Shown: positions 3,072 through 54,200, counted from the first letter of the stretch. The stretch is DNA of 56,405 bases from a virus (IMGVR_UViG_3300030333_005663:1-56405); one strand, 5' to 3'. Numbers and translations are program-made. The notes: generated from the sequence alone by a model not told the origin.

Positions 3072-3680
3072 TTATCCAATAGTTTTTCCAACATTAATAT
3101 CCATATCTACCTCTTTTTCAATATCTTTCAAATTGAATAGTTCTTTATTGCTTAGATTTCTAAGTAATAAGTTTAAATTATTAGTCATTTGTTCTAATTG
3201 ATTTTCAAGACTAGCAATCCTATCAAATTGTGCATTAAAGTGAGTTAATTGCCCAGCAGTCAATTCTCCAGTTTCTAACCCTTCTGAAGGAGGGTCAGAC
3301 TTCCATGTCGAAGGAACCTCATAGCTACGTAATTCCTCGGGCATTTTAGCGGAAAAAGTTTTCCAATTATCAGCTCCCATTATCTCGATAGCATTAGTTC
3401 CAAATCCATCTCCTGTTTCCTTAATGCGCATAGTTCCTGTTTCACTAGTAAGTCTTCCCATTTGGGGGTTTCTAGCTTCTCTAACTACTCTTCTTTTAGC
3501 AGGTTGAACCATTCTATTTTGAAGATTCCCTAAAACTTCCCATATTTGATCTAAAGAAGATGTAACTTCATAATCGTCAATATCCCCAACTCTTTGCTCT
3601 ACGTGTACAGGATTCCTGGAAGCTGAACTTCTTCTAGCTATAGGTTTTCTTGTACTTCTTTTTAAGGTTGAATTAGACAT
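3072..3680 (-). CDS. Hypothetical virion-associated protein
   Basis: 202-aa ORF coupled to the nozzle gene by a TAATG overlap; coiled-coil C-terminus. Confidence 0.6.
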   Translation of the reverse strand: MSNSTLKRSTRKPIARRSSASRNPVHVEQRVGDIDDYEVTSSLDQIWEVLGNLQNRMVQPAKRRVVREARNPQMGRLTSETGTMRIKETGDGFGTNAIEIMGADNWKTFSAKMPEELRSYEVPSTWKSDPPSEGLETGELTAGQLTHFNAQFDRIASLENQLEQMTNNLNLLLRNLSNKELFNLKDIEKEVDMDINVGKTIG

Positions 3681-32340: not shown

Positions 32341-32380
32341 GCCTTGCGTCCACATATGTGGGCGTGAGGCTTTATATTTT
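32341..32380 (+). terminator. Intrinsic terminator
   Basis: GCCTTGCGTCCAC-ATAT-GTGGGCGTGAGGC followed by TTTATATTTT. Confidence 0.7.
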
Positions 32381-33852: not shown

Positions 33853-34134
33853 ATGGCTAGAACATCAAATAGTAGTACAAGTGATACACCAGCACCAGCA
33901 GAAAGAAGAATACAGGTCTTCGAAGGTGGTGATTGGGTGGATAAAGTAATAACAGGTAATACAATAGGCGATGTGCGTAATGCACTATCTATTCCGCATG
34001 ACAACCAAGTCAGAGTGAATGAAGTGACCTATACAGATAACTCTTCTGAATTACCTGAGCAAAGAGTTGATCAAAATGGTAATATTATACCAGATTTGGT
34101 TGCTTGGCAGTCTAACACCAAGACTGGGGGATAA
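33853..34134 (+). CDS. Ubiquitin-like (beta-grasp, ThiS/MoaD-like) protein ending in Gly-Gly
   Basis: 93 aa from the AAGGAG-preceded ATG 33853; beta-grasp pattern RIQVF..., TIGDVRNALSI, VRVNE, ELP...DLVAW; ends KTGG-stop; adjacent to JAB and E1 genes. Confidence 0.8.
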   Translation: MARTSNSSTSDTPAPAERRIQVFEGGDWVDKVITGNTIGDVRNALSIPHDNQVRVNEVTYTDNSSELPEQRVDQNGNIIPDLVAWQSNTKTGG

Positions 34135-34142
34135 ATAAAACC

Positions 34143-34218
34143 TAAGGAGTCTGTGAAATCCTACGCCAAAGATTAAGGCATGATGGTGATTGCTTTATTA
34201 AAGGACGCAGACTCCTTA
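34143..34218 (+). ncRNA. Structured RNA element between the Ubl and E2-like genes
   Basis: 13-bp stem TAAGGAGTCTGTG / CGCAGACTCCTTA, inner TCCT/AGGA pairing and a GCC..GGC hairpin. Confidence 0.55.
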
Positions 34219-34233
34219 TAACCTGGAGATAAC

Positions 34234-35910
34234 ATGACAAGCTTAAATTTATTTGATTGTGAAGTAAATAAGTTTGACAAGTATACTCAAATACCATTTA
34301 CAGAGGATAAATTAATACAAGCAATTCTATATAGAGATGGACATAGCCGTTACAATGCAGAGCGAAAAGATTATGATATCTTACCCATAGAAGAGTTGTT
34401 TAATTTTATTAATGCAGATGATATTGTTGAGATATTATGTCAAAAACCAGTTACTGATTTAATGGAAGCAGTAGAGATATATAATGATGATATACAATAT
34501 ATTGTTCAGAGTATGAAAATGAAGAAATTGATAGATTATTCTGAATTTAGATTTGCTTTGACTAAAAACTTTAACTGGAAAGCTGGAACATATCCTTTCA
34601 TTCATAAATTGTTAGATTATTTTGAAGGAAGATATATGAGAGCATCAGGTATAGATAGTTTATTTAAAAGAAGACTAAATAATGAAGGTTATTTAGATAG
34701 TCATCGTGTAAGATTAAATAGATTAGATAAACTAAGAGCTACAGCTAAAAGAATGGTTGGTTCTAAAGAGTCTGATGCATCAGAGTATAAAGAAAGAATG
34801 CTCGAGGTGCTAGAAACTATTAATGAAAATACATTAAAAGGCAACAAGGTTAGTGATAAAATAAAGTTTACTCATTATTTTACTACTAATGGCTATAGTG
34901 ATAGTAATCAATACACATTTCTTGATTTGTGGTTAATTACAAAAATAGATATCGCTCCTATGGATATGTATTACACTAAAAATAATGATGTTGTATTTCA
35001 TTTGACTCAACCAGCAATGACAACATTCCTTCCAAGACCATTGTATAAAGTATTAAATAATGATGTAAGAGGAGCTCGCGCTTCTTATTTATACGGATAC
35101 TCACAAAATAAGCATGCATACTTGCAAGATTATTCTATGTGGGAAAGAGGTGGTAATGGTACTATGCATAGACAACCTTGGAGTAGTGTTTGTTTATCAG
35201 AACATGGTGATGGTGTAATTAGAACCATGGGACGTCATAATTATGCAGCAGCAGCGCATAATTTAACTTTGTGGGGTAGTTCTTATAGTTTAGAGCATAC
35301 AAATCCTTATAATGGGCCTAATCAAATAGCCTATGAACAAGGAATACCAGAAATACTCCATGATAGTCCAGATGATATCAAGACATTTAACGCTCTTATA
35401 GGATTTAGTCCTGAAGATTGTTACAATCAAAGGATAGCAAAACATAGACATGTATTCTTTGCCGAAGAGCCATTAGCAGGAAGAATAATAAATGATATAG
35501 ATTATAGTCTTTATTCTAATCTTGAGTTATATGGCGATGAAATGATAGATGAATGTGTTAATTGTCCTATTAAAGAGGATTGCTATAGAATGTCAGAAAG
35601 AGCAATGTATTATGCAACAAAACAAGAGTGGGGTCCTATAGTTGAAGCACTTATTGCAGAAATGTGGGATGCTGGAGAATTTTCTAATCGTTATGGTCAG
35701 CTTTATTGGTATATCCATTATCTACATAAGCTTTCATTGAAAGATTATGATGAAGGATGGGGATACATTATATGGGCCTTAGATGATAAGACTGATTTCT
35801 TTAAAGAACCCTTAACCGCAGAAGAGCAAGCTTTAGAAGATGCTCGGATTGCACAACTTAACGCCCGAAGAGAAATGGAACAATGGGCTATTGGAGGTAC
35901 TAATGGCTAA
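34234..35910 (+). CDS. Putative E2-like Ubl-conjugating protein with a coiled coil and a C-terminal Cys cluster
   Basis: 558 aa; H294 (KHAYL), then VCL (C320), then W..Y....NPY, resembling the prokaryotic E2 core HPx..CLG..YN..PY; ECVNCPIKEDC; lies between Ubl and JAB. Confidence 0.5.
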   Translation: MTSLNLFDCEVNKFDKYTQIPFTEDKLIQAILYRDGHSRYNAERKDYDILPIEELFNFINADDIVEILCQKPVTDLMEAVEIYNDDIQYIVQSMKMKKLIDYSEFRFALTKNFNWKAGTYPFIHKLLDYFEGRYMRASGIDSLFKRRLNNEGYLDSHRVRLNRLDKLRATAKRMVGSKESDASEYKERMLEVLETINENTLKGNKVSDKIKFTHYFTTNGYSDSNQYTFLDLWLITKIDIAPMDMYYTKNNDVVFHLTQPAMTTFLPRPLYKVLNNDVRGARASYLYGYSQNKHAYLQDYSMWERGGNGTMHRQPWSSVCLSEHGDGVIRTMGRHNYAAAAHNLTLWGSSYSLEHTNPYNGPNQIAYEQGIPEILHDSPDDIKTFNALIGFSPEDCYNQRIAKHRHVFFAEEPLAGRIINDIDYSLYSNLELYGDEMIDECVNCPIKEDCYRMSERAMYYATKQEWGPIVEALIAEMWDAGEFSNRYGQLYWYIHYLHKLSLKDYDEGWGYIIWALDDKTDFFKEPLTAEEQALEDARIAQLNARREMEQWAIGGTNG

Positions 35911-36883
35911 TAAAAGTCAAAAAGCTAAATTTATCATAAGTGAAGATGCATGGAATACAATGCAACAATATGCCAAGCTTGCTTATGATAAAGATGGAAA
36001 TGAAATATCAGGTATATGCTTAGTTAAAAAGACTAAGCATCCTATAGATGATACAGATGTATGGGAGTTATTTGAGCCTTGTATTCTCAAGCAAGAGAAC
36101 TCAACTACAAATACTATACTTGACAAAGATGTATTACCACCATATTATATTGACATGGCTGTGAAGCATGGTACTGATATTAGGTATTGTTGGTGGCATT
36201 CACATCACACAATGGATGCATTCTGGAGTGGAACTGATCAAAATGAGATAGAAGCATGGAAGAATAGCTCTTGGTCATTAGCCCTAGTTATTAATTTAAG
36301 ACAAGAATATTGTCTGAATGTTAGTACATGGGATCCTGTTGAACACAGTGAAGATGTTCCTCTTGAGATAATACGTCCAATACCTGAACCATCAGCTAAA
36401 ATGATAAAAGAGTATAAAGATAAATGCTCTAATATTGTTACTGCAGTGTCAACTTATAACCATAAGAAATATGGATATGGTTATGGATATAATCAAAAGA
36501 ATGGTCAGCTCAGCATGATTCGGTCTGAAGGTATACCTGAAGATTTAGTCTTAAAATGGGGAGCTGGTGATTTATTAGATGATTATGCTAAAGTTTACAG
36601 TCAGGCTGTAGATGGTTTAGATGATTTGAATAGCGAGTTCTTAATTGATAGAATAAAATACGCTCAGTACAAAAAGAAAGTACAAGCATGCAATAAGCAA
36701 TTAAAGAAAGTTAATGCTAGATTTCAAATCAAAATCTACCCTAAAGCTAAGTTAATAGAAAAATGCTCTACTGATTGCCCTGATGAGTTCTTCGAGTATG
36801 ATAACGATGAAACAGAAATGGCATATATGAGTGTTAAGGCTCATCAAGAATCTCTAGAATATGGAGGTTATGGATGGGTATAA
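35903..36883 (+). CDS. JAB/MPN+ (JAMM) metallo-isopeptidase
   Basis: 326 aa from the GGAGG-preceded ATG 35903; catalytic E (NEISG) and complete HSH-x7-S-x2-D motif (WWHSHHTMDAFWSGTD). Confidence 0.9.
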   Translation: MANKSQKAKFIISEDAWNTMQQYAKLAYDKDGNEISGICLVKKTKHPIDDTDVWELFEPCILKQENSTTNTILDKDVLPPYYIDMAVKHGTDIRYCWWHSHHTMDAFWSGTDQNEIEAWKNSSWSLALVINLRQEYCLNVSTWDPVEHSEDVPLEIIRPIPEPSAKMIKEYKDKCSNIVTAVSTYNHKKYGYGYGYNQKNGQLSMIRSEGIPEDLVLKWGAGDLLDDYAKVYSQAVDGLDDLNSEFLIDRIKYAQYKKKVQACNKQLKKVNARFQIKIYPKAKLIEKCSTDCPDEFFEYDNDETEMAYMSVKAHQESLEYGGYGWV

Positions 36884-37545
36884 ATATGCGTAGTGAAGGG
36901 TTAGTAAACAGTTTGCATGAATATACATATCATATATTAGGTTGCGGGGCTATTGGTAGCTCTGCAGCCACTCAATTAGTACGCTCTGGTGCTACTAAAT
37001 TTGTATTATATGACATGGATACAGTGGGAACTGAAAACATTGGTGTATCTCAATATTTTGATGAGCATATTGGAATGCAGAAAGTAGAAGCATTGAATGA
37101 ACATATGCTCGGTATTAACTATAATGCAGATATTATGATGGTAGATGAATACTTTAAATTATTCAGGTATCAAAATAATAATGATATAGTTATACTTGGC
37201 TTTGATAGTATGAAGTCAAGGAAAGAAGCAGTAGAAGAGATATGTAGAAGAAAGAATGAGAAACCCTTTCTTTTAATAGATGGTCGTATGGGTGGAGAGC
37301 ATTATCAACAGTATGTATTTACTGATGTTAAGCTTAAATCTTATATGGATACTTGGTATTCAGATGAAGATGGAGACCCTGAACCATGTAATGTAAAAGC
37401 AACTAGTTACTGTTCTAATATGGCAGGTAGTTTAATAGTAAATGCTATCAGGAAAATAGTGTGTAAACACCCCTATGAAGAGTTCCTGACATTTAACTTC
37501 CCTACTATGTCAATAGAAAAGAAAACAGTTGTTCCTCGATCATAA
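36874..37545 (+). CDS. ThiF/MoeB/E1-family Ubl-activating enzyme
   Basis: GCGAIGS nucleotide loop, YDMDTVGTEN, KVEAL, GFDSMKSR, IDGRMG; candidate catalytic C172 (EPCNVKAT). Confidence 0.92.
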   Translation: MGINMRSEGLVNSLHEYTYHILGCGAIGSSAATQLVRSGATKFVLYDMDTVGTENIGVSQYFDEHIGMQKVEALNEHMLGINYNADIMMVDEYFKLFRYQNNNDIVILGFDSMKSRKEAVEEICRRKNEKPFLLIDGRMGGEHYQQYVFTDVKLKSYMDTWYSDEDGDPEPCNVKATSYCSNMAGSLIVNAIRKIVCKHPYEEFLTFNFPTMSIEKKTVVPRS

Positions 37546-37599: not shown

Positions 37600-38289
37600 A
37601 TGGCGATTAAAAAACAAAAGCGTAAAGCTGTGTCTACTAATCCTCAATTACTCTTATTATATGGTGCCCCTAAAGTAGGTAAAACTACCATGTTATCACA
37701 ATTAGATGATTGTTTAATTGTTGATACTGAAAGAGGTGCAAATATGCTAGAAGGGTATATTGAAAGTGTTACTAGTAGAGATGAGCTATTAGATCTGCTT
37801 ATTCAGTTAAAAGATAGTAAAGATGTTAAGTATAAGTATATAGCATTAGATACTATTGATAAAATAGCTGATTGGGCAGAACAGAGAACGTGTGAAGAAG
37901 AAGGAGTCAGGTCATTAGCAGATTTAGCCTTTGGTAAAGGTTATGGCATAATGAGAGAAAAGGTATCTAAAACGATAGAAGCCTTTCTTGACGTTACAGA
38001 GCATCTTATAATAGTAGGGCATAGAAAGCCAGCATTTGCAGTTACAGATGGTAGTCCAATAGTTGTACCTGAGTCACTAGATATGACAGGTAAATTAAAG
38101 AATATCATAATGTCTCGTTGCGATGCAATAGGGTATGTGTTCAGAGAAGAAGATAGCTTAAAAGTATCATTTCAAGCAAATGAAGCTGTTGAAGCTGGAA
38201 GCAGATGTGAACACTTAAAAGGCAAAATAATCGATTTCAAATGGAATCACATTTATAAGGAGAGTAAAAATGGCAATAGTAAGACCTAA
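37600..38289 (+). CDS. Sak4/AAA_24-like P-loop ATPase (single-strand annealing)
   Basis: YGAPKVGKTT, DTERG, IALDTID, VGH and CDAIGY motifs. Confidence 0.8.
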   Translation: MAIKKQKRKAVSTNPQLLLLYGAPKVGKTTMLSQLDDCLIVDTERGANMLEGYIESVTSRDELLDLLIQLKDSKDVKYKYIALDTIDKIADWAEQRTCEEEGVRSLADLAFGKGYGIMREKVSKTIEAFLDVTEHLIIVGHRKPAFAVTDGSPIVVPESLDMTGKLKNIIMSRCDAIGYVFREEDSLKVSFQANEAVEAGSRCEHLKGKIIDFKWNHIYKESKNGNSKT

Positions 38290-38866
38290 ATCCTCTAGTG
38301 GAGGTGGAAATAAATACTATGGTATTTGTGAAGCAAATATTATAGGATATACTGATAAGAGTGCAAACTTTCATTGGGCTGATATCTTTATTGAAGTTGA
38401 GATAAAGCAAAAAGACAGTGATTACACTAAAAAGATGCAAATCGCTGGAAGCCTTGAAAGGGATTCAGATAATAAAGTATCTGGTGGTTCAGTATTGAAT
38501 AGAATGTATAAGTTCTTTGATGTTATTGGATGCAAAGCTGGTGTTAATATAGATGGTCACTTTGAATTAGAAGATGGCACACCTATACTAGATATAGCTG
38601 AGTATCTTAATGAGAACTTTGTTCATGAAAGTGAGCAATGTCCATTCTTGGTATATGTTTACAAGTCTATTCCAAAACCAAATGAAACTCAATCATACAC
38701 TAGAGTAGTGCCTAAGATTCACTTGAATACTCAAAAAGGCATGGAGCAAATGGAGAATGATATAGCTTATATGAAGAAGCAAGGTATCATTAAAGAAATT
38801 GATCCTAATGTTAAGCCTAATGACCAACAAGTAAACTTAAGTAATGGGGCTTTAGATAATCTGTAA
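38270..38866 (+). CDS. Putative ssDNA-binding protein (Sak4 partner)
   Basis: Lies between the ATPase and the primase; OB-like beta pattern; acidic-hydrophobic C-terminal tip (LDNL). Confidence 0.45.
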   Translation: MAIVRPKSSSGGGNKYYGICEANIIGYTDKSANFHWADIFIEVEIKQKDSDYTKKMQIAGSLERDSDNKVSGGSVLNRMYKFFDVIGCKAGVNIDGHFELEDGTPILDIAEYLNENFVHESEQCPFLVYVYKSIPKPNETQSYTRVVPKIHLNTQKGMEQMENDIAYMKKQGIIKEIDPNVKPNDQQVNLSNGALDNL

Positions 38867-40623
38867 TGATTATAGAGATTGCTAAAAACTCTCCAAGTGC
38901 AAGAGGTATGTTCATCCAAAAGGATGAGCTGCCTCAGCACATTGATACTGAGGAACCTTTATTTCGTTCAACCTATTTATATCCTGATGACGTACAAGAA
39001 CATCTTGATAAGCATGGTTCTATAAAGGATTATTTTGGAGTTAGAAGTATCGATAATATTATTATAGATATTGACAGAAAAGATAATTCTGATGAATATA
39101 CATTAGAGCAATTAAAAGAAGTTGTAGATATATTATATAGCTTTGATGTAGACGATGAATCTATGCAGCCATTCTATAGTGGAACAGGATATCATTTAAT
39201 AGTATCAAATGAAGTATTTGGATTTGAAGCATCAGAACAGCTTCCAATGATAGTAAGAGCTACTATGAGTAAGTTATTCCCTGATATAGATAATAGTATT
39301 TATATGAGAAGCGGGATATACAGAGTGCCTCATACTATTAATAAGAAGTCAAAACTCTACAAGATACCAATTCATATGGATGAGGTATTTAAAGAGAAAG
39401 CAGAATATATAAAGCTATTAGCACAAAGTCCTAGATTAGACTATAAGTACCGACCTTTGGTTGGTTCTGGTCAATGTAAGGATGAAATAGTAATAGCTGA
39501 TAGTAAAATATATTCTATGCAATCTGTTGCAGAGCCCAATAAAGTAGTTCCATGTGTGCAAACTATGCTTATGCAAGGACCACAAAGTGGAGAAAGGCAT
39601 AATACTGTATTACGAATATGTAGTCATTTTAAGCGTAATGGTATTCCTAGCGAATACGCTAAAGCATCATTAATGCATTGGAATAAAGGCCAATTGCATG
39701 AAGATGAAATAAATAGGCTTATAAAGAATGCATATGATGGTAATTACAGATATTCATGTAACGACCCGTTGCTTAAAAAGCATTGCAAGACTAATTGCAT
39801 ACATTTCAAAAGAAAAGACTATCTAGTAGATGTTAAAACAGCAGAAGAATTGCAAGAAGATTATGCTAAAAGACTTACAACTAACTTTAAAGGTAGAACT
39901 ATTCCTTTATCAGCAATGTTAGGCGTAGATGTAGACGTAGATATATTTCCTGGCGAATTAGTTACTATATTTGGGCCAACAGGCTCAAATAAAACTACAT
40001 TAGCTCAGAATCTAGCTCTAGGAGTTGATTTTGTTAATGATAGGATAAACACTGATTGGCAAATACCTACATTATTTCTATCGCTTGAATTGTCAGGTTG
40101 GTATGTACATCGTAGACATCTTCAAATCGTATCAGGCTTATCTAAAGATGAAGTCAATAATGATTATGAGGAAGTATATGAAGGTCATAAGGATAAACTT
40201 AGCAATATAGTAATACAAACTGTAGCACCAACTGTACAGCAGATACAAGAAAAAATAAGAGACTTACAGCCAGCTATGGTAGTTGTAGATTATATTGATT
40301 TAGTAGATGTGCCTTTTAATAAAGGTGGAGAACATCAAGCTATCAAATATATATCGCATACACTATCTAACATGGCAGTCAATATGGATATAATCATAAT
40401 ACAAGTATCGCAAGTAAGTAGGGAATACAGTAGAAACGAGGTTCTAGACCTGTATGCAGGGAAAGGATCTGGTGCAATTGAAAACGCTTCTAGGAAGGTT
40501 ATAGGGCTTAATGGACAAGCTAATTCACATCGAAAGAACGTGCATATGTTTAAGAATACTGATGGAGAATTGCTTGACTGTGAGCTTGAATGGCGTCCTA
40601 GTTTTAGATTAAGGAGAATATAA
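38866..40623 (+). CDS. AEP primase-polymerase / SF4 (DnaB-like) helicase fusion
   Basis: IDID, SGTGYH and RVPHTINKKSKLYK AEP motifs; GERHN PriCT-like segment with a Cys cluster; GPTGSNKT, SLEL, VVVDYID, VSQVSR and GSGAIEN helicase motifs. Confidence 0.88.
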   Translation: MIIEIAKNSPSARGMFIQKDELPQHIDTEEPLFRSTYLYPDDVQEHLDKHGSIKDYFGVRSIDNIIIDIDRKDNSDEYTLEQLKEVVDILYSFDVDDESMQPFYSGTGYHLIVSNEVFGFEASEQLPMIVRATMSKLFPDIDNSIYMRSGIYRVPHTINKKSKLYKIPIHMDEVFKEKAEYIKLLAQSPRLDYKYRPLVGSGQCKDEIVIADSKIYSMQSVAEPNKVVPCVQTMLMQGPQSGERHNTVLRICSHFKRNGIPSEYAKASLMHWNKGQLHEDEINRLIKNAYDGNYRYSCNDPLLKKHCKTNCIHFKRKDYLVDVKTAEELQEDYAKRLTTNFKGRTIPLSAMLGVDVDVDIFPGELVTIFGPTGSNKTTLAQNLALGVDFVNDRINTDWQIPTLFLSLELSGWYVHRRHLQIVSGLSKDEVNNDYEEVYEGHKDKLSNIVIQTVAPTVQQIQEKIRDLQPAMVVVDYIDLVDVPFNKGGEHQAIKYISHTLSNMAVNMDIIIIQVSQVSREYSRNEVLDLYAGKGSGAIENASRKVIGLNGQANSHRKNVHMFKNTDGELLDCELEWRPSFRLRRI

Positions 40624-40829
40624 TGTTTGCATTCATGTTAATGGACAGTGGCATAAGTATAAAGCTCTTTTGGATATTTCGACTTACTATCTGCTCTACA
40701 GAGTGGGAGTATGGGAAATGTACAAATCTAACAGTAGGTATATGGAAACCAGAGATAACCTTATCTTTAGGATGGAGAACTAAAGAACCTTCATTAGGAG
40801 ATATAGATACAAATGGTGCAGAAGCGTAG
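40623..40829 (+). CDS. Hypothetical protein
   Basis: 68 aa, AAGGAG RBS, TAATG coupling. Confidence 0.55.
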   Translation: MFAFMLMDSGISIKLFWIFRLTICSTEWEYGKCTNLTVGIWKPEITLSLGWRTKEPSLGDIDTNGAEA

Positions 40830-41310
40830 AAAACAAGTAAGTTCTCGACTACTTCCTTGGAGTGAAAAGTTTATGCCGATTCTCAGCAAGATACATGGGA
40901 ATCATGCTAAAAACATATTTCACAGAACAATGAAGAAAACTAGTACGTTGAGATCTTCTTTAAAGCGAAGGAGTAAAGAATATGAAGTGGAGTTCAATGT
41001 CACCCTTAGTGAAATACGTCACCTTACGTTATCACAATATGGTAAACCATGTAGGTATTGTAGGTGTAAAATGGATGTTAGGAATATGGTTTGTGACCAT
41101 ATTTATCCTCTTTCTATGGGCGGCAAGTCAATTATTAACAATCTTCAGATGATATGTGCCTCTTGCAATACAAAGAAAGGCCCATTAACTCATAAGATGT
41201 ATAATGATTTGCTTATATTCTTAAAAGAACAACCGCAAGAGATGCAAGAATATATCTTGCGAAAACTGGCGAAAGGAGACGTATTCTCTAATGTATTACA
41301 ATACAAATAA
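40813..41310 (+). CDS. HNH endonuclease
   Basis: CRYC...DHIYPLSMGG...NNLQMICASCNTKK. Confidence 0.9.
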   Translation: MVQKRRKQVSSRLLPWSEKFMPILSKIHGNHAKNIFHRTMKKTSTLRSSLKRRSKEYEVEFNVTLSEIRHLTLSQYGKPCRYCRCKMDVRNMVCDHIYPLSMGGKSIINNLQMICASCNTKKGPLTHKMYNDLLIFLKEQPQEMQEYILRKLAKGDVFSNVLQYK

Positions 41311-41887: not shown

Positions 41888-42040
41888 ATGCCAAAAAGAG
41901 TGTATAAAGAATCTATGCCCTCACATGAAAGACGCGTAAAAGCAATAAAAAAAGCTGCAAATGGTTGTTGGTGGATTGAAATGTATTTAATGGATAGCTT
42001 TGGTGTGTCTACAGGATGGAGGAAGCATGACAAAAGATGA
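41888..42040 (+). CDS. Small hypothetical protein (50 aa)
   Basis: AAGGAGG RBS; MPKRVYKESMPSHERRVKAIKKAANGCWWIEMYLMDSFGVSTGWRKHDKR. Confidence 0.6.
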   Translation: MPKRVYKESMPSHERRVKAIKKAANGCWWIEMYLMDSFGVSTGWRKHDKR

Positions 42041-42785
42041 ATATAGTAAAATAAAAGTAGAAAGAAAAGATAGTGGATTTAGATGGTATAGGATTCCAGG
42101 CGAGAAATGGATACCATCAGTTACTACAATATTAAATGTAATAGCCAAGGGCGTAGGATACGAACAATGGCTAGGTAATCAACCAAGTTATAAAGCAGCT
42201 TGTGAAGTGCGTGATGAAGCAGCAGAAAGAGGAACTATTGTTCATGACTCTATTGAGAAACTACTCAAAGGAGAGTCTATAGAAGCAGTCAATGATGAAA
42301 TAGCGAAGCATTTGATGTGTTTTACGAAGTTTTATGCTGAGAACGACATAGAGGTCATTGACCAAGAATTGTTCCTAATAGACCCGAATTATGATTTTGC
42401 AGGAACTCCAGATTTAATTTGCAAAGCCTCTGGTAAGACTTGGCTAATTGATTTTAAGACTGGTAATTTCTACAAAACTCATCCATTGCAATGTAGAATG
42501 TATGCATTGTTATATGAGAGTATATTCGGAATAAAGATAGATTGTATAGGTGGTCTATACACTAAATCAACTTGGATTAAGGAGCCTAACTACACATTAA
42601 AGCGATTCCCTTATACTGATAAGGCTATTGCTAAATATGATACATGTATATTAGGAGCTGTTAGTTTGTGGAATTATATGAATGGTACTACAAAATTGGC
42701 AGACCCTTATCCTAAAGATCCAGTAAAAATCGATAGCGTATTTAAATTAGGAGGAGTAACTAATGACAGCTATGAAGAACTTTGA
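42027..42785 (+). CDS. PD-(D/E)XK exonuclease (Cas4/RecB-like)
   Basis: PSVTTIL, RGTIVH, AGTPD, IDFKT and Q..MY motifs; start revised to ATG 42027 after GGAGG. Confidence 0.85.
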   Translation: MTKDEYSKIKVERKDSGFRWYRIPGEKWIPSVTTILNVIAKGVGYEQWLGNQPSYKAACEVRDEAAERGTIVHDSIEKLLKGESIEAVNDEIAKHLMCFTKFYAENDIEVIDQELFLIDPNYDFAGTPDLICKASGKTWLIDFKTGNFYKTHPLQCRMYALLYESIFGIKIDCIGGLYTKSTWIKEPNYTLKRFPYTDKAIAKYDTCILGAVSLWNYMNGTTKLADPYPKDPVKIDSVFKLGGVTNDSYEEL

Positions 42786-43650: not shown

Positions 43651-45204
43651 CTATGCGCGACGAGTAATTATAAGTTTCGCAAGTTTAAGTAAATGTCTAT
43701 TGAACCAATGCTTAGAACCAAATTCTGATATAATTCTTCTAGAAGTATTCTTACCTAATCGTTTCATAGCTTTTAAAGCTTGAAATCCATCCTTATTCTT
43801 GATTGCATCTTTTAGAATCTGACTATTTGCCACATAAGCATCGGGCTTCTTGAATAAATTGTCAGCTTTGCTAGATGCATGAGAATGGATAGTTATATGT
43901 CTACGCCTTTGAATACCACCTTCCCCTACAACTTCTTCAGGTCCTTTTAGATCATATTTGTCCGTAGTAAGCATTGACCATCCAACTTGTCCATTTTTCT
44001 TTTTCCAAAAAATACCATCAGTATTAACCCCACCAAGCAGATAGCTAGGCTTAAAATCAGGACTAAAATTAATATGAAGCCTTCCATTCTTAACATAATA
44101 ACTTTTCATGAATCGTTCTACTGCCCTTATATAATCATCTTGAGGATGTATTCTACTTGAAGCGTCTAATAAATGTCTACTAGTTCCAAATGAAGCTGCC
44201 CTATGCTTTGCCCATTCAAACACTTCTTTAGGATTATTTAAGTCTTTAGCATTCCTAGTAACATATTCTGCTAATTTAAACATAGAGTCTTTTTTATTAG
44301 CTAAAGAAATAGGAGCTTTATCTACTCCTCCCATAGAACCTATAGCACTATCTGTAAATCTAGATATAGTAATTCTATCATGAGGGAGTAATTGCCATTT
44401 AGCAGCTACCCCTGCATGAGGTCCTTTAAATACATTTTTTGTAATTTGTTTTTCAGGGACAGAGTATCCTGCAGCTTTTAATTTTTTCTCATCAAAGGGC
44501 TGGTCAGTAACGGCCTTATTCAATTCAGTCTTTATGATTTCATGTCTAGTTTGTCGCTTCTGAGCTCCTATACCACCTACTACTTTATCAGGCTGGAGAT
44601 TTTGCCTTTCATACATATAATCTAGCTTGATTGTTTGTAATAGTTCTCCAGGGCTACCATAAGGTATCTTTCCTTTCTTGATAAGGTTTAATATCTTATT
44701 AACATCTCTCTCCGAAACATTTCCATTCTTGACAATAGTCCTAGGGTCTATTTTTTCCCCAGCAGGCAAAATCTCGTTTATTGCAGTTAGTTCCCTTAAA
44801 GCCATTCCGCCCATATGGCGAACAGTTCCTTTTAAAGGTCTTCCTCTTCCATGAAGAAATAATTCTTGAGTAGCATCAGCGTGTGCTTGCTTTAAAAATT
44901 TAGCAGTATCTCTTAATTCACTTCTATTAGAACCAAAAAAGTGATCTTTTTGTAGCATTAATTTCTGCCAATTAGTGACACCAGCAGCATAATAACCTTT
45001 TAATATATTATTAGCAGTAGAAGCTCTAGATGCTATAGCTTTTTGTACAAAAGGAGTTCTCCTAGCAGCCCACTTAGCTACAGGAACGCCTCCATATGCA
45101 ACACCTAAAATACCTAGCCCTGTCCCTACTCCAGACCCAGAGCTTTCATTATCAATGCCATCTACCTCATCTTTATAATGTTCTAATAATGTAGGTTCTT
45201 TCAT
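43651..45204 (-). CDS. Basic hypothetical protein, probably virion-ejected
   Basis: 517 aa; Gly-rich hydrophobic segment GVGTGLGILGVAYGG; coupled to the vRNAP gene. Confidence 0.55.
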   Translation of the reverse strand: MKEPTLLEHYKDEVDGIDNESSGSGVGTGLGILGVAYGGVPVAKWAARRTPFVQKAIASRASTANNILKGYYAAGVTNWQKLMLQKDHFFGSNRSELRDTAKFLKQAHADATQELFLHGRGRPLKGTVRHMGGMALRELTAINEILPAGEKIDPRTIVKNGNVSERDVNKILNLIKKGKIPYGSPGELLQTIKLDYMYERQNLQPDKVVGGIGAQKRQTRHEIIKTELNKAVTDQPFDEKKLKAAGYSVPEKQITKNVFKGPHAGVAAKWQLLPHDRITISRFTDSAIGSMGGVDKAPISLANKKDSMFKLAEYVTRNAKDLNNPKEVFEWAKHRAASFGTSRHLLDASSRIHPQDDYIRAVERFMKSYYVKNGRLHINFSPDFKPSYLLGGVNTDGIFWKKKNGQVGWSMLTTDKYDLKGPEEVVGEGGIQRRRHITIHSHASSKADNLFKKPDAYVANSQILKDAIKNKDGFQALKAMKRLGKNTSRRIISEFGSKHWFNRHLLKLAKLIITRRA

Positions 45205-48200
45205 TACAATAATCCTTTAGGATAAGGCTTTTCTTTGGGTTCTTTTTTATTTTTAGAAACTGCTTTTTGCAATTGTAATAAAGGCATGCCAGTCCATCTC
45301 ATAATAGCATTTAATGGATTTTCTATAACATTACCTTCATTTAAAGGGGAGAAGTCTCTCAGGAGCCTTCCAAATGGAAACATAGTATAAACATAATATT
45401 GGCTCAATCTAGTATAATCATCATCTACTATACTTCTTATAACAGAATTAGGTATTCTAGCAATAGGTGGAGTTATCGCCTGTAATGGTGCTAATGGCCC
45501 TTTGTAGGTGCCAAAGAAAGCTTTATCTCTTTCATCCTCATCTCCAAACAACCACTGTGCGGTATCTTCAAACCAGTTATATGGAGCTGGCATAGCAGTA
45601 TCAAATAATGAATAAGCAAAGATATTCCCTAGTGCAAATACAAACATATCTATTTGAGTTTGTCTTGCAAACCTATTAAACTCATCAGTACCAGGTCTAT
45701 AACCATAAATCCTCGCTTGTCTTCTAACATCATTCCTAAAACTAACAGCATTCCATGACCATGTTTGAAAACGTGTCATCACCTTACCAAGCGCTGTCCT
45801 AGAGAAAGCTGGCCTATAAGGAGCAGAATATAAGAATTGAGTAGCTTTAACTCCTTTCCTAGCTAATTCTAGCAACATAGGGTCATCGTATCTCTTTATT
45901 CCACCGCCAAACTTATTCCACCAATGAACATAATGAGCCATAAAAGCATCACGCCTAATTTTTCTCTCAGGAATTGACATCCATTTAGCAGCCCAATTTT
46001 GAACTTTCTGAGTTACTCCATATTTTTTACTAATAGATAATAGAGTATCTTCTTTCATCTCAGGATCTCTAGTCATTTTTTTAGCGACATCAGCAATAAA
46101 TTGCTTATTCCTTTCAATTGCACCTGCTTTTGTTAGTCCAAATTCATATAACATTCTTTCGGGGTATATTCCAGAGGATACCACAAACCTATCCACTGCT
46201 TCAGCATTAGTCCATTCAGGGTTAATTTGAGATAAATACTCATAATTAAAGGAGTTTCTCCAATTTCTCCATCCTACTGATTGTATAGTATGGGTAGTAC
46301 CACCAAATATATTACCTGTAACACTTTTAGGGTGCACCAATAAAGAAGCCATTTCAAACTGTGCTTCTAGATTACTCCAATGGCGCAATTGATTCAGGTC
46401 AAATTGTCTTAACTCTTTCGGTAGATGCTTACCCTTTTTAAGTAATCCTAACTTAGAAGCTATCTTATTTACTCTATTTAAGACTCTATCGTCAGCCCAC
46501 CTTGCATATAATGTTCCTTGAAGCTTCATATCTCTATTTTTTAATACATCAGTAGGGATAATATCGGGAGAGCCCATTGCGCCTTGAACGTAAAGCTTCA
46601 TGAAATTACTCCAAGCTTGAGTTTGTCTTTCTCCGTATTTGGGAAGCATATTTTTCCCCATTTGATTGATAATCTCCCTGCTAAATATTTGTGACAATTG
46701 CCTGTAATAAGTATTTGTCAAGCTTCTTATGTATGATTCAGGGACAGAAGCATCTACAGAATGTCCTGCTACATGAGTATTTCTACTAAACATAGCTCCA
46801 GCTCTTTCATCTGCATTAAAATGTTTGATTTTATCGGGCTTAACTTTCTTCTTCTTTCCGATATCAGCCATAATTCTATCAAATGACTGCCATTCCATAA
46901 TATCTCCAAATTCCCAGTCACCTGTTAAAGATTTATTTTTATACATTAATTTTGTGACTTGTTCAATCTTATCTTCTTTTGTTAATGTTGGGTCATTTAA
47001 AAGATTTTTAGCTGTTTTTTCTAAGTATTCTGATGCTTTTTTCTTGTTAAAATGCATATGAGGCCAATAGTACTCAAAAGGTATTTTACCAGTAGATTCA
47101 AGCATTGACAGTCTAAATCCTTTAACTATATCAGGATCACCTACCATTTCACCCATCATTTCCCTAGCTATCATTCTCAAATTATCTATACCATATTTAG
47201 AAGATACATCTTCTCCTCTTTTCCAAGCATCTTGTAAATCAACAATAAACTTTTTATAGTCTAGCTTAGGATAAAGCTTTTGTTTATCATAATAACCCTT
47301 AATATAAGGTTTCATAACGCCTTCTTCACCACGAATCATTTCATGCATTTCTTTGGCGGTTTGAGTATATTCAGCGTTAATTTTTTTAACCAATTCTTGC
47401 CCTGTTACTTTAACTCTTCCTTCTCCAAAGTCAACAGTATATTCTTTTTTCTTTAATTCTTCCCAATTATACTTCTTGGTAGCATTGTTGTATTCGGTAA
47501 TATAGTCAGAGATTTGAGCATGTTTTCGAGCAGGGTCTATTTTATCATTATTAGCCAATACGTTCTCAGCATATCCTTTCTCTCTTTGCCTTACTGCTAT
47601 TTCTCTTAAAGCTTCTCCGTCTTCAATAGAATTAACAAATAATAACCTTTTCTGCAAATCTTGTATTTTTTGATCCCCCTCATGTACAGCAGAGTTGTTC
47701 ATTCTACCTATCCAAGATTGAACAATATCTATATACGAAGAAGGTCTTGCTATATCTCCTTGAACCAACTTGCCATCTACGGTAGAAAACCAGCCTTTTT
47801 CATATAAAAGCTGCATATCTTCCTTCATCTGTTCTCTACTTATAGTTCTAGGGAATAAATACCAATGTCTCTTACTTAATCTTAATTTGCCTTTTTTGTC
47901 GAATAAACGCTGCCATATAGTCCCTGTTTGAGTATCCCTTAGCCAATCTCTAAAAATCCTAAAATCTTCCTTATTCATGGCATTTAGCTCTTTTCCAAAT
48001 AATCCTCTAGTTAACTCGCTTATACTATTTCTAACTTTAGGGTCATATACTTTGAGCATATCAGCTGTCTCTAATATAACCTTTTTCATCTCAGCGTCAA
48101 CAGGACCTTTCTTTAATCCTTCGTATCCTGTTCCTTCATAAGCCTTTTCAACTAAAGTTTGGACTTCCCTATTTCCATCAAACTCTAAAGTAGGGTCTTT

Positions 48201-51200
48201 ATCTATATTCTCACTTATTTCCTTAACTTCTTTTTCAGTAATATTAGTACGAACAGTTGAATCAAACTTTTCTGCAATATCCCCTAAAAATGAACGAATA
48301 CTTTTATCTGAAATTTCTAAACTTTGAAATCCTAATCTACTCATACCTGTTCTAGAAGCTTCTCTTCTTAAAGTCATTAGATAATCTCTTATAACAGGAG
48401 TCTTCATATCCTTCTTATAAACCCTTTTAATCAATCTATCGATTTTATCTAAATTACCTCTATTTAAAGAGCCTAGCATGAGAACATCAAAAGCCTCTTT
48501 TTCTAATTCAGTTAAATTTTCTTTAAATTCTCTGATTTGTTTGTCAATCTCGATTTGATCTATTTCTGTTGATGTCTTTTGGCCTAATTTCTTAGACTTA
48601 GGTTCAAATCCCCTAACCCATCCTAACTCTTTGACGGCAGCTTCATGTAGCTTTCTAATTTCAGCATCCGCAGCTAATTGTTGCAAACTTTCTGCAACAG
48701 GCAAGTCAGCCATATTCTTCCTAGCTTTAGCCATTAAAGCACTATTCTTCTTTAAATACTCTATCTTTTTGTGAATATTAGTTAGATTTGCTAATTGTTG
48801 CTCATTCATTCTCTCAGCTATATTAATAATTCTTTGTGCAGTAACTGCATCTGTAATATCATTAATAAAGAAATTATTAGACTCGTTATGAAGCCTCTTT
48901 ATTATATTCGCTCTATATTCTTTACCAGTGATATTATCTGCTCCTTTTTTATAAGCATCAGGTATGTCAAACATAGTTCCTTTGATAGCTTTTACGAATA
49001 CCTTATAGTCTTCAATTGCTAAATCTCTACCATCTTGAGTATTTAATTTATATTTTAAAACATTATCTATATGATTGTTTAATGGTACTCTAAATGTATT
49101 ACGACCTAATATTTTTTGAAGCCATTCATAGCCTTTAACAGAAACTTCAATATCATCATACATTTCTTTTAATTTATCTCTATCGGCTCTATTTATAAGG
49201 TTATCTTCCATGTATTTAGTAGCTGTGTTTAATAATCTACCCACTTTAGTTAATAAAGTATTATTTTGGCTAGCATCTAAATCCCAAACCCCTTTTGACT
49301 TTTCATGTATATCTGAAATAGACCATTTTCTCTGAGAGGTATGATCTCTTCCATAAAAAGCACTATTCATTTCTGCTAATTTACCATATGTTCCCCCTTT
49401 TAATTCCCACATAGAAAGTTTTTTCTCTTTAGCATCAGTAACTTTCTTCCATATATCGACACCTTTTACATTTCCTGCGTATTTCTGGACACTAACAGGC
49501 TTAAAATGAAGATGCCATAAAGCTTTAAACCAAGTCTCCCCACTCTTTAATCCATTTTCATCCATAGGGTCTGAACCTAATGCTACTTGTGCTCTCCCCA
49601 TTTCTCTTGCAGCTTGCTGGGCTTTGGGGTCTTTGCGAATACCTATAGTAACTTTGTACCTTTCCCACTTATCAGGTCCTGTTTTTCTTTGGAACTCATA
49701 TGTTTCCTTCCCATTATTAGCTGCTAAAGCTGAATAGAGAGAGGACATAATTTGTTTTTGTGTAACAGCTATACCTAGCATATTTCTGCCTTCTACTGTT
49801 CTTCTAGAAACCTCTACTCTATGTAGAGGATTATATTTGTATAATATGCTGCTTTCTAATTTATCTTGCTCGGGGGTTAATTGCTCTGCTAACACCTCAT
49901 TATACCTTTTACCTTTATTTACACCCCATTCTACTTTTTCAGTCTTATTATCCCCAACTATCCCTCTAAAATTCTTTTTTGCCTTAGCAGATAACGCATC
50001 ATACTCTTTCGGAGTAATCGTCTTCTTCCCATCGGTATATTTATAGAACTCCCTTTTATTATTGCCAAACGCCTCTTTCCACTCAGGTTTAAATCCTCCT
50101 TTACCACCCATAAAGAACCAAGCCTCATCTCCATCTAAATCAGCTCCACCTAAAGCTCTCATAGCCCTTGAATGCATTAATATTCCATGACCTTTTCTAC
50201 CTGTAAAACCAGCAAATTCTAGCTTATGAGCTCCAGATATAGAGTCCATAGGAACTCTCATTACAACTGAATTGAAGATTTCTTCTATTTGCTTTTTAAC
50301 AGCAGGGTCTTGCTTTTTGTGCATTTGAGTATAAGTATCATATAAAGTTTGCAAATCTACCCTACCTATACCCTTAATCCCTGTATTTATCATAACTTTT
50401 TTATAAGCATCATCTAAGAAGAATATCTTATCATTAGTGTTAAGTTCTTTTAACCTAGGGTTCACATTATCAGCATCTACCTGTAAGAACTTATCATAAG
50501 GTCTAATCCTTGCTACTCCTGAATTGACTATTTTAGGTTTAGCTGTTTGATCTACAACATAATTACGAATAGCTTGCATTCTATAATGAGTAACAAATTT
50601 ATGTAAAAATGCTGATATAGCACTCACATCTTTTCCTCTGCTTCTTTGAGCAGCTGTCCATTCTCTACTTCTTTGCAACATTCTATCAGCTATAGATGTA
50701 AATTCATTTATCTCTTGCTTAGCTGCATGATATTCTGAATCTTTTATTTCGCCTGATGCTAGTTGCTCTTGCAATCCCTTAGCATTAAGTTTTAAGATTT
50801 GCTCCCAAGCTATCTCTGTAAAATGATGATTATTAGGCATTCTCATAGCTTTTAATAATTGAACTATCCCAATATCATCCATATTTTTTCTTAATTCTTC
50901 TAAGCTTTTACTCGCTTCTTGCTTACTATAATCTTTCGAAGATATTAAATCAATATGTGATTGAAGCATTTTATTAGCTGCATCTGTCCCTAAAAACCTT
51001 CTTTCTATAACATTATCAAAAAAGTCATTAATAGTATCTTGTTTTATGTTCCACATTGCATGATTAACTAGCGAGCCCATTAATTGCTTAGGGATACGTT
51101 GAGGCTCTAACATATGATTATTTTGCTTAGTAGACATATTATACTTAATATGTTCAGGGCTTAAATCATTATAAATAACATCATAATCTCTTTCACCTCG

Positions 51201-54200
51201 CTGCTTAGCTGCAGAATCATATATTTTAAAATGTAAATTATCTTGCTGCATCATCTTTGTTTGCTTAGAACCAGCAGCATGCATCATATATTTTCCTAGC
51301 ATAGCTCCATGTTTAGCATTTGGGCTAACTATGAAAGATTTGTTTTGACCAGAATCTGGCATCCCAGCATCCGCATTAATAGCATCAATCACATCATCTC
51401 TAACGATAATAATACCATCAACATGTTCAGGTAGCTCTTTGTTTTTCAAGTCAGTAAATCTATTGTCTTTTTTACTTAAATAACGGTCATCTACCAGTCT
51501 ATACCTAAAGTTGCCATTATCTAGGTCACTTACCCCACCTTTCATTTCTTTTAGATACTTAGTGATAAAAACACCATCACCTGGATATGAATTATTCCAC
51601 CATATTTGTGCTCTTTTATTAAAACCTAAAGCATTGGGAATATATCCCTCTTGGTTTACCTTATTTTTTAATTCTTTGAAGCTTTTATTGACATTACTTC
51701 TATCAATTTTAAAACCATTCATTTCTATGTCATAAAGAATATTAGAAGTCACACCTTTTTTTAGCGTTTTAATATCTACTCCAAACTCCTTCGCTGATTT
51801 ATCATAATCACCTTTAAACAAATCAGCTGTATTTACTTTATCTGTTAAGGGATGGTATCGAACAAAGAAAACTTGGTCTTTATCTGCTTTACCTCCAAAC
51901 GCATGATATCCTTCTCTGTGCATTTGACTTATAACTTTACCCATCCATTTTTTATATTCAGCTACAGCTTGTTTTGGATTAGAACCACTAGCCATCTCTC
52001 TTCTTATGTCAGATAAGCTTTTATCTTGATATCCTCTGCCTTTTACAAATTCAGTAACAACATCTAATACAGCGTAAGCTTCGCCTTTGCCTCCTGCATC
52101 CCTAAATACAGTTTCTAATATCTTTTCTGGTTCTCTTCTTTGCCTAGAATTTCCAGCCTTTGTAATAGGATTATCTATGTCTAGGAAAGATATTTTTCCA
52201 AATGGATCTACGGAAACAGCTCTAACTGGTTTGTCGAGGTTTCGTCTAGTCATCCATTGGCGCATTTCTAATCTAGCTTCTTTACCTAAAGTTATCTTAG
52301 AACCATATTTCTCTTGTAACCAGCCTTCTAATTTATTCGCCCATTCTGCCGACCTATTTTCAGTCGAGCCAGGATTAAGATAATCTTTCAATAAACTTTC
52401 TATTTTTTGGGAAATTTTATACTTTTCAACTGTTTGAGCAGGAACATCTGGAGCATTTTTCCATACTTTAGATAAGTGAGTGTCTGTAAAGTAATAAGAG
52501 GTCTTACCTATAGTAACATCGTCAACCATACCAATATCAGTATCAGAATCTTTCTGCTCGTTTAATTCTGTAGAATCGGTTTCCTTGCTATCAGTAGCTT
52601 GTCTGATTGACAACTCTTCATCCTCTAACCTTTGTCGTTCTTCTTCTAGACGCTCCCTTTTCCTCGCTGATGTATTAGGTCTCTCCAGCTCTTCAGCGAT
52701 TTCAATTTGTCGTTCTAAAATTTGATTTACTCTATGCTCATCTTCTGGAGTAAGGTTTTTATCTACTTCTGATTTAGCTTTTTTTACATTCTTAAAATGT
52801 GTTTCAAAAAAGGAAGAAGCCTCTTTGAGTCCTGGCTTAGTAATAGTATCCCATTCACCAATCATCGCCAATCTTCTAGGAGGTTTAGGGGGTTTTTTGA
52901 CATTTACAAACTTATTTACAGTCGGCTCATATGAATACCATTTACTTCTTTTTAAATCGAAGACATGCACAGGCTTTTTATTGTTAATAGCCATTTGAGC
53001 CGCCCATCCTGGCCCTTTATTAACTCTAGTATTATCTCCCTTTAAAGTACCAAAGATATATACTGAATCTGAACCTTTAACTTGATGCCAATTCCTTCTT
53101 GCTTGATTCACTTCAAAGTTAGAAAGGTCTCCTACTTTAGCATCTAATTTACTTTCAGCTTTAGCAAGCTCTCTATTAGATTCTTGTAATTGTTTTTCAG
53201 TTAATGGAATTTCTGCACCATGCATATCTGAAGGCTTGGAGCCTTTCTTTGTAACATAGTGAAAAAGAGGAATATTATACTGGTTCGCTAAAGCTGCAAT
53301 AGCTTTTTCCATGCCTCTACTTCCACCAGAAACAATATAATGTTTATATTTCTGAAGAGTATCTTTGCTTATCTTGAGCTGACGTTCACCTTCTACATAC
53401 TTCTGGGTTATCTCTACTCCTTCATCGGTGATAATAGGCTTTTCTTTTATCCTATGCCCTTGACCTGCTTGAACAGCAAACAATTCTGCTATAGCTAATC
53501 TTTCAGCAGGGTCTCCCCACAGCCTCTTGGCCTCTTTCTTAACTAAAGGCTTTACCTCAGGGGGTAAACTCTTCCATTCAGGCAACATTTCTGGATCCAT
53601 AGCTACAGATAGCTTAGGATTTTTTGCTGCCTCTTTGCGCATTTTTACTATATATTTTTGCTGCTTAGCTATTGTCCATGGGGTCTCTTTTGCTCCAAAG
53701 TAAGCCCCAAGTAAATATTCATATATTTGCTCAGGAGTAGTCGCTCCTCTCATTGTAGCAGGTAATCCTTGGAATAAAGATCCTGCCATACTTCCTATCA
53801 CCTTCTGACCTGCGCTTGGATTAGCGCTTTTTAAATTTCCTATAACTCTAAAAATACCACCAGCTTGAGCTCCACCCATAAAAGCATGCATCATCTGGTC
53901 TACTCCACCTTGCCAAGATGATACTGAAGAAGCAACACCTAAATGAAAAGCTCCTTCCATAATATGCCTAGCTCTATCTCCTGCTATAAAATTAGATACA
54001 GTCCCAGCAGCACCTGCTCTACCAGCTAGTGCCTTACCGAAAATAGGTTTAGCTATATCTTTAGCTTTTTTAGTTGCTATTTTAGCTATAGCCATAGGAA
54101 CTGATTTGTCATTCAAGGACTGAAACATTTTAGCAGCACCTTTTAAACCTAAAATCTTACTTGGCCCAGCTAATATACCAGGAGCAAATCCAGCTAAATG

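Follow-up and report, generated by a model that had tools for sequence, protein, structure and literature searches.

Relation of the phage cassette to known systems

Prokaryotic ubiquitin-like (Ubl) conjugation, as in the Bil, type II CBASS and Bub systems, has been described so far as host machinery, and its known functions act against phages. In the accessible text of Iyer, Burroughs and Aravind 2006, operons combining E1, E2, JAB and Ubl genes are listed for bacteria only, and the only phage Ubl/JAB pair found in the accessible print sources is a tail-assembly pair devoid of E1 and E2. Here we analysed a complete virus record, 56,405 bases long (IMGVR_UViG_3300030333_005663:1-56405; CheckV completeness 100%), called the window throughout, which carries four consecutive genes at 33853-37545 for a predicted Ubl tag, a 558-residue putative E2-like protein, a JAB metallopeptidase and a ThiF-type E1 enzyme. 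An initial annotation had read these genes as co-oriented, and all four open reading frames (ORFs) were indeed placed on the plus strand at these positions. The gene set, motifs, conservation and synteny of this cassette were computed directly, and on balance the four genes probably constitute a self-contained phage-encoded Ubl conjugation cascade, the biochemical steps of which are proposed. We found no description of a phage Ubl-E2-JAB-E1 set in the accessible literature (subscription-only papers and supplements lay outside the search), and a brief remark in one preprint concerns a phage protein family with a likeness to UBA5. What would be new here is a Ubl conjugation operon that serves as a core module of lytic phages and is built around an unrecognised large E2-like family.

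Like the predicted cassette, Bil (BilABCD) has four separate genes, one each for a Ubl, for an E2 whose catalytic residue is Cys, for a deubiquitinase of JAB type and for an E1 (Chambers et al. preprint; Hör et al.), and the extended loop before the E2 cysteine is seen in Bil too (Chambers et al. preprint). Bil is, however, a host-encoded defence whereas the cassette is encoded by a phage, and the Bil E1, BilD, has tandem inactive and active adenylation domains as well as a Cys domain that is mobile, in contrast to the single domain of 223 residues found here (Chambers et al. preprint). No defence model of PADLOC gave a sequence-level match to the cassette except the CBASS 'E1-E2' models, which were the best PADLOC matches of the E1 (E 6.5e-15) and covered its Rossmann part only (residues 6-90). 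In Bil a small UBC domain stands alone as the E2, in contrast to the E2-like core of the window, which is embedded in a protein of 558 residues.

Type II CBASS shares the prokaryotic E1, E2 and JAB chemistry through Cap2/Cap3, but its E1 and E2 are fused and the C-terminus that it conjugates is that of the CD-NTase, while the cassette has separate genes and a dedicated GG tag. Bub (6E/DUF6527) is likewise a diverged bacterial operon with Ubl, E1, E2 and peptidase, but its E1 and E2 have no catalytic Cys and use Tyr/Ser oxyesters, and its peptidase is the DUF6527 serine protease (Ye et al. preprint). In the cassette, Cys320 of the 558-residue protein and C172 and C180 of the E1 are invariant, and neither DUF6527, ParB nor a nucleotidyltransferase was recognised by Pfam among the 53 predicted proteins of the genome that were scanned.

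The ThiF-ThiS and MoeB-MoaD pairs resemble the cassette in their single-domain E1 of ~220-250 residues and their small GG-ended beta-grasp protein with ThiS-like sequence, to which the cassette adds a linked JAB, the E2-like protein and some tailed tags. Tail-assembly protein I and the JAB-NlpC protein K of lambda and T1 also set a phage Ubl with a conserved C-terminal Gly beside a JAB predicted to cut after this Gly, but the pair has neither E1 nor E2, belongs to the tail-assembly module and is thought to be processed and not conjugated (Iyer, Burroughs and Aravind 2006). PRTRC (ParB-related, ThiF-related cassette) of plasmids is another mobile-element set organised around a ThiF-family protein, from which the window differs in that its E1 reached only 29.4 bits (E 4.6e-7) against TIGR03736, the cut-off of which is 144.75. 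The tag, the 558-residue protein and the JAB matched no NCBIfam model at E<=0.1, PRTRC models included. The cassette thus resembles Bil in the parts it contains and in its predicted cysteine-based chemistry, while it carries the defining features of no known family compared.

Adenylating enzyme and peptidase

The identity of the last gene product (36874-37545, +; 223 residues) as a ThiF-family adenylating enzyme is secure as judged from family profiles. It scored 72.9 bits against Pfam ThiF (PF00899; cut-off 28.1, E 2.9e-20), with a domain spanning residues 11-216. The GxGxxG loop and candidate catalytic Cys ascribed to it in the initial annotation correspond to GCGAIGS (G23-C-G-A-I-G28; nucleotide loop at 36940-36957) and C172 (37387-37389), and these are invariant together with R6, D47, D49, K70, D111 and C180 (37411-37413) in 53-61 homologues, the two cysteines in all 61. 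The nearest solved relatives of the family profile were MccB (1.2e-9), then UBA5, TcdA, UBA6, MoeB and ThiF. The enzyme stayed below every NCBIfam equivalog cut-off (PRK08644, 79.4 vs 159; TIGR02354, 62.5 vs 152.2; TIGR02356, 54.7 vs 275.25), and from these profiles we classify it as a diverged single-domain E1-like enzyme that is the orthologue of none of these relatives.

The identity of the preceding gene product as a JAB (JAMM/MPN+) metallopeptidase is also secure, on the evidence of its motif and family profile. The JAMM motif had been called intact, and E55, H120, H122, S130 and D133 of E55...H120-S-H122-x7-S130-x2-D133 (numbering of the longest ORF) proved invariant in 65 homologues. 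On its own the window JAB scored 18.3-18.5 bits, below the Pfam cut-off of 25; within its family, Prok-JAB was matched by 49 of 49 members (Pfam, E<=0.01, best 1.4e-5) and JAB by 29 of 49, and the family profile aligned with Rpn11 across the motif (E 4e-5). The ~170 C-terminal residues that follow the catalytic domain are poorly conserved.

As the JAB relatives begin at the equivalent of Met22, translation most likely starts at 35903 rather than 35840, which gives a protein of 326 residues (35903-36883, +) in place of the 347 residues of the longest ORF (35840-36883). This bears on the extent to which the last three genes overlap, as noted in the initial annotation: the JAB and E1 ORFs share 10 nt, and with the likely start the E2-like and JAB genes share 8 nt rather than 71 nt.

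Predicted ubiquitin-like tag

The first gene of the cassette (33853-34134, +) is preceded by AAGGAG 8 nt upstream of its ATG and encodes 93 residues that end in NTKTGG-stop. All 20 close database homologues begin with MA and keep KTGG, and two of them have 7-8 residues beyond it; the N-terminal ~17 residues are variable and rich in Ser/Thr. The motif SN(N/D/T)K(V/T)GG was kept in 56 of 56 homologous ORFs from related viral loci, and GG forms the exact end in 34 of these, being followed by 1-15 variable residues in the other 22, with ends such as GGIK, GGKK and GGVINK. Lys90 is invariant, and most relatives have Val in place of the Thr before GG. An invariant GG with an optional, unconserved tail marks what would be a precursor cut to expose its glycine, and the adjacent JAB would be the obvious enzyme for trimming the tailed tags.

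Among 57 members of the tag family, ThiS (Pfam) was matched by 10 (best E 1.6e-4), DUF348, a ubiquitin-like domain family, by three and ThiS-like by one. The family profile found no Ubl among PDB sequences, and the ESM Atlas offered sub-threshold leads only, one of them a viral cluster with ThiS in 10% of its members (score 0.86). The tag appears related to the ThiS/MoaD type and is a predicted Ubl, in keeping with the GG-ended Ubl of the initial annotation.

Similarity to ThiS and ThiF is also what a sulfur-carrier system would display, in which the E1 would adenylate the ThiS-like protein and this, once thiocarboxylated, would supply the sulfur with which a cofactor, tRNA or DNA is thio-modified for the phage. 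Among NCBIfam models, those of ThiF match the E1 best (E 2.8e-22), the homologues of this enzyme in crAss-like and FpV phages are labelled 'thiamine biosynthesis protein' in GenBank, the ThiS matches of the tag relatives point the same way, and host enzymes could supply the absent steps. The ThiF/MoeB equivalog scores given above are, however, far under their cut-offs, and the absence of sulfur-transfer enzymes that had been noted in the neighbourhood extends to the whole Pfam scan, in which no sulfurtransferase, ThiG/ThiH, MoaE, rhodanese, cysteine desulfurase, PP-loop enzyme or other thiamine or molybdopterin enzyme was recognised among the 53 proteins. Besides, a co-inherited JAB, tailed precursors and an E2-like protein are needless for sulfur transfer, and we consider a sulfur-carrier system very unlikely.

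Large putative E2-like protein

The protein encoded between tag and JAB (34234-35910, +; 558 residues) is likely E2-like, with Cys320 as its candidate catalytic residue. It is composed of three parts, namely a helical N-terminal region (residues 1-180), a UBC-like core (~184-371; 34783-35346, +) and a helical C-terminal region. An earlier structural model from 8 sequences was unusable (predicted local distance difference test, pLDDT, 61.2) and gave no PDB match at E<=0.001 in Foldseek, whereas the AlphaFold2 model from 63 sequences reached a pLDDT of 88.9 and a predicted template modelling score (pTM) of 0.81. The central unit of the latter consists of a long helix, a beta-meander, a loop with H294 (35113-35115) and C320 (35191-35193), and then helices; residues 184-371 were aligned by three E2 structures and by no other fold, over a near-full-length 126-131 residues.

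The family has 8 close homologues; when 1.84 billion representatives were searched with its profile, 77 clusters at 50% identity were matched (E<=1e-3). Both H294 and the Cys in WSSVC320LS are present in the window protein, as proposed in the initial annotation with its H...VCL core. In the alignment of 63 full-length members, whose identity to the window protein ranges over 15-57%, M1, C320 and P358 are the only invariant columns; all 8 close homologues keep H294. The family consensus reads HPYI...(Y/W)G.VCLD..DDI...WAQYYN...SNPYNQP and that of the wider family (H/F)PYI...VCLD. The canonical E2 signature is HPN...ICLD...PNxxxP, which the consensus appears to resemble. We regard an assignment of the protein to the E2s as likely, on the near-full-length coverage of three E2 structures, the motif, the invariant Cys and the company of its genes taken together.

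A group of cysteines in the C-terminal helical region, C396 and C441-x2-C444-x5-C450 (35419-35583, +), is invariant in the close family, and C444 is nearly so in the wide family; this cluster at residues 396-450 may be a zinc knuckle between helices.

Several results weigh against a conjugation cascade. The 558-residue protein matched nothing in Pfam (E<=0.1), PHROGs, NCBIfam or PADLOC; no E2 family was among the 25 most-matched of the 70 Pfam families hit by the 63 members, and no E2 model among the seven PADLOC families matched by its family. A search of the genome with UQ_con at E<=10 returned nothing, as did Foldseek with the model against PDB at E<=0.001. The clade of the window reads HAYL...VCLS and not HPYI. 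The 93-residue tag of the window itself matched nothing in Pfam, PHROGs, NCBIfam or PADLOC. In the E1 as aligned to MccB, Ser59 takes the place of the Arg in the N-x-x-R-Q ATP motif, with V58 and S59 invariant in 53 of 53 homologues, and the enzyme has neither the separate cysteine domain nor the ubiquitin-fold domain with which eukaryotic E1s recruit E2s. Arg6 may compensate for the absent motif Arg.

Apart from these, the profile of the 558-residue family found nothing relevant among PDB sequences, and the ESM Atlas gave no usable feature match for the E2-like core, its own model being poor (pLDDT 0.29). The predicted complex of the E1, the tag and the 558-residue protein scored 0.01 (mark 0.32), which speaks neither for nor against binding.

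In one alternative, the tag, the E1 and the JAB would need no E2, as in archaeal SAMP/UbaA or Thermus TtuB/TtuC: the E1 would transfer the tag directly, and the role of the 558-residue protein would be that of principal substrate, of adaptor or of some unrelated cysteine enzyme. The invariant Cys lies, however, in a context of HPxI...VCLD type, and the central domain is matched in structure by E2s only, which align over nearly their full length. A mere substrate would also be unlikely to keep the Cys and the NPYN motif while the rest of the protein drifts to ~20% identity. Transfer without an E2 is judged unlikely on this account.

The C-terminal Gly of the 558-residue protein was considered as a conjugated end, in the manner of CD-NTases in CBASS, and was rejected. 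G558 is invariant in the 8 close homologues, with 0-2 trailing residues, but the idea was dropped because the wider family has no conserved C-terminal Gly and only an M..WA motif persists there.

Conservation and synteny of the cassette

Through three IMG/VR scans, we collected 68 loci with a member of the 558-residue family on 66 distinct contigs, or 69 loci including the window, and genes in them were called by iterated local hidden Markov model (HMM) searches. The order throughout was tag, E2-like protein, JAB, E1, Sak4, a 198-residue protein and primase-helicase. All four cassette genes were present in 50 of the 69 viral loci, and in the other 19 the absent gene falls past the locus end (at most 444 bases remain upstream, or 0-21 bases on the downstream side). 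Wherever a locus had room for a cassette gene, that gene was there, and the synteny in relatives on which the initial annotation had staked its reading was therefore borne out. The E1s across these lineages are only ~57-60% identical to the window E1. The four-gene arrangement is not due to chance, as argued by the ThiF score, the invariant JAMM residues, C172 and C180, the invariant C320 and the recurrent gene order, and an uncultured phage lineage with genomes of ~50-56 kb conserves the cassette as a core module.

No member of the 558-residue family was found in bacterial or archaeal genomes in two pattern scans of 185,579 species representatives, made with two distant sub-family alignments; being based on short peptides, these scans may miss distant relatives.

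The genes of the module have diverged at different rates. Where all seven genes are complete (31 loci), pairwise identity averaged 0.27 for the 558-residue protein (0.20 in its C-terminal region), as compared with 0.49 for the tag, 0.48 for the JAB, 0.66 for the E1, 0.74 for Sak4 and 0.69 for primase-helicase, which makes it by far the fastest-evolving of the module. Such fast evolution fits a role in target recognition.

It is also a habit of conflict genes, and the same chemistry might serve another purpose, either a Bil-like exclusion or defence borne by the phage that tags proteins of competitor phages, or a decoy or eraser against host defences that conjugate Ubls or CD-NTases. Among the characterised bacterial relatives, both Bil and type II CBASS function in the conflict of phage and host, and, as noted above, the E1 has its best PADLOC matches in CBASS E1-E2 models. 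Genes for accessory defence or anti-defence tend to have a patchy distribution, whereas all four genes of the cassette, in each locus that extends far enough, occupy one fixed place in the replication module, and for an eraser the JAB alone would suffice. We give a conflict role of this kind only a slim chance.

Probable diverged counterpart in cultured phages

We compared the cassette with 50,697 GenBank phage records, and its DNA matched none of them; the E2-like protein and the JAB had no match in tblastn against the same records. The E1 matched 76 records at ~26-44% identity, the best at ~30% over most of its length, and these belong to Bacteroides crAss-like phages (including ΦcrAss001 and DAC15) and to Flavobacterium psychrophilum FpV phages. 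In the GenBank records, the JAMM homologues found with these ThiF proteins are labelled 'metalloprotease'.

In PhiCrAssBcn20 (record positions 83899-88261), genes for a primase, a 225-residue protein, a 444-residue protein, a 416-residue JAMM protein (HSH-x7-S-x2-D) and a 369-residue ThiF protein follow one another, and in FpV4 (63878-67889) the series is toprim, UDG, 289 residues, 420 residues, a 423-residue JAMM protein and a 228-residue ThiF protein. The first ~90 residues of the 225-residue protein end in KKIKSGA, and the 289-residue protein reads ...KQVKSGG and continues into a long tail. The cassette of the crAss001-like (Kehishuvirus) and FpV phages is like that of the window in its order of a Ubl-like N-terminus (~90 residues, K-x-K-S-G-G/A), a 420-444-residue protein, JAMM and ThiF, and in adjoining a primase or toprim gene; it is unlike the window in that the tag is fused to a tail of 130-200 residues.

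HMMs of the window families matched the E1s (E 1.4e-27 and 1.5e-24) and the JABs (1.6e-6 and 5.6e-9) of the crAss and FpV cassettes. For the tags the likeness is a local motif only (E 0.007 over 16 columns), and hhalign detected no similarity between the 558-residue family and the 444/420-residue proteins (E 0.59). After its own family, the next matches of the 558-residue model in BFVD were crAss-like virus proteins of 373-435 residues (E 2.8e-3 to 5e-2), and the phage cr128_1 carries one of these matches as well as an E1 homologue. We read these genes as probably corresponding, in diverged form, to the entire cassette, with homology demonstrated by profile for E1 and JAB and probable for the other two parts. 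The counterpart phages hint that the host of the window phage may belong to the Bacteroidota.

Proposed mechanism and significance

For the conjugation cascade, we propose the following course. The small ThiS-like protein would be the tag, from which the JAB would trim the residues beyond Gly-Gly where these are present. The E1, probably as a homodimer with Arg6 used in trans, would adenylate the terminal glycine of the tag and may then carry the tag on Cys172 or Cys180. From there the tag would be handed to Cys320 in the UBC-like core of the 558-residue protein, whose fast-evolving helical N- and C-terminal regions would pick the target, thereby making it an E2 and E3 in one. The tag would finally be joined to an amine of the target, and the JAB could also strip it off again, reversing the tagging. 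The cassette would be expressed together with the replication genes.

Because its lineage keeps the cassette as a fixed core module, we infer a role in the infection programme of the phage itself, through modification of host proteins or of replication and other proteins of the phage; an accessory role is less likely. The initial annotation had suggested takeover, counter-defence or the stripping of host Ubl tags as possible roles. More tentatively, lytic phages of Bacteroidota may run their own Ubl tagging as a core early function, in this lineage and, by means of the diverged counterpart, in crAss-like phages, with a new family of giant E2/E3-in-one enzymes that would tag host proteins or phage replication proteins for takeover or for blunting defences; this broader proposal is plausible, though we hold it with distinctly less confidence than the cascade itself. 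The crAss-like phages dominate the human gut virome.

On this proposal, ubiquitin-like conjugation would arm both parties in the conflict between phages and bacteria. If the cassette is indeed a complete conjugation set, phages themselves would use Ubl-conjugation chemistry. It would also add a large, previously unrecognised E2-like family, the 77 clusters of which were found here only in viruses, and provide a concrete reading for the 'thiamine biosynthesis protein' and 'metalloprotease' genes of ΦcrAss001-like and Flavobacterium phages. As the counterpart phages are cultured, the hypothesis is directly testable.

Genomic context

The cassette lies within a plus-strand early/replication block of ~31.9-43.6 kb, and both the GC skew and the coding strand flip at its borders (~31800 and ~43620). 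The initial annotation had located it just before the replication module, and it is directly upstream of a Sak4-like AAA_24 ATPase (37600-38289, +) and a primase-helicase (38866-40623, +), both assigned by family match. Between these two lies a conserved protein of 198 residues without a family match (38270-38866, +), which is kept at the same place in 57 related loci and, judged by this position, may be a single-strand-binding or annealing partner. Further replication genes recognised were those for an HNH/endonuclease VII-like protein (40813-41310) and a PD-(D/E)XK exonuclease (42000-42785).

An arm on the minus strand carries the structural genes, among them those for the large terminase, the portal, the major capsid protein (SU10-type) and the endolysin. 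The phage had been taken as apparently lytic, in agreement with which no integrase was recognised among the 53 predicted proteins in the Pfam scan; the same scan recognised no DNA polymerase, and no tRNA genes were found in the genome. Sigma-70 promoters were not above the shuffled expectation, in a scan that is ill-suited to promoters of the Bacteroidota type. A strong terminator-like hairpin of 13 pairs, 8 of them G-C, occurs at 32341-32370.

Besides, the window contains two giant ORFs on the minus strand, one of 3098 residues (45204-54500), which had no match in Pfam, and one of 2403 residues (3680-10891) with no match in Pfam or PHROGs. Together they make up 29% of the genome, and they may encode a virion-borne polymerase, tail proteins or injected proteins.

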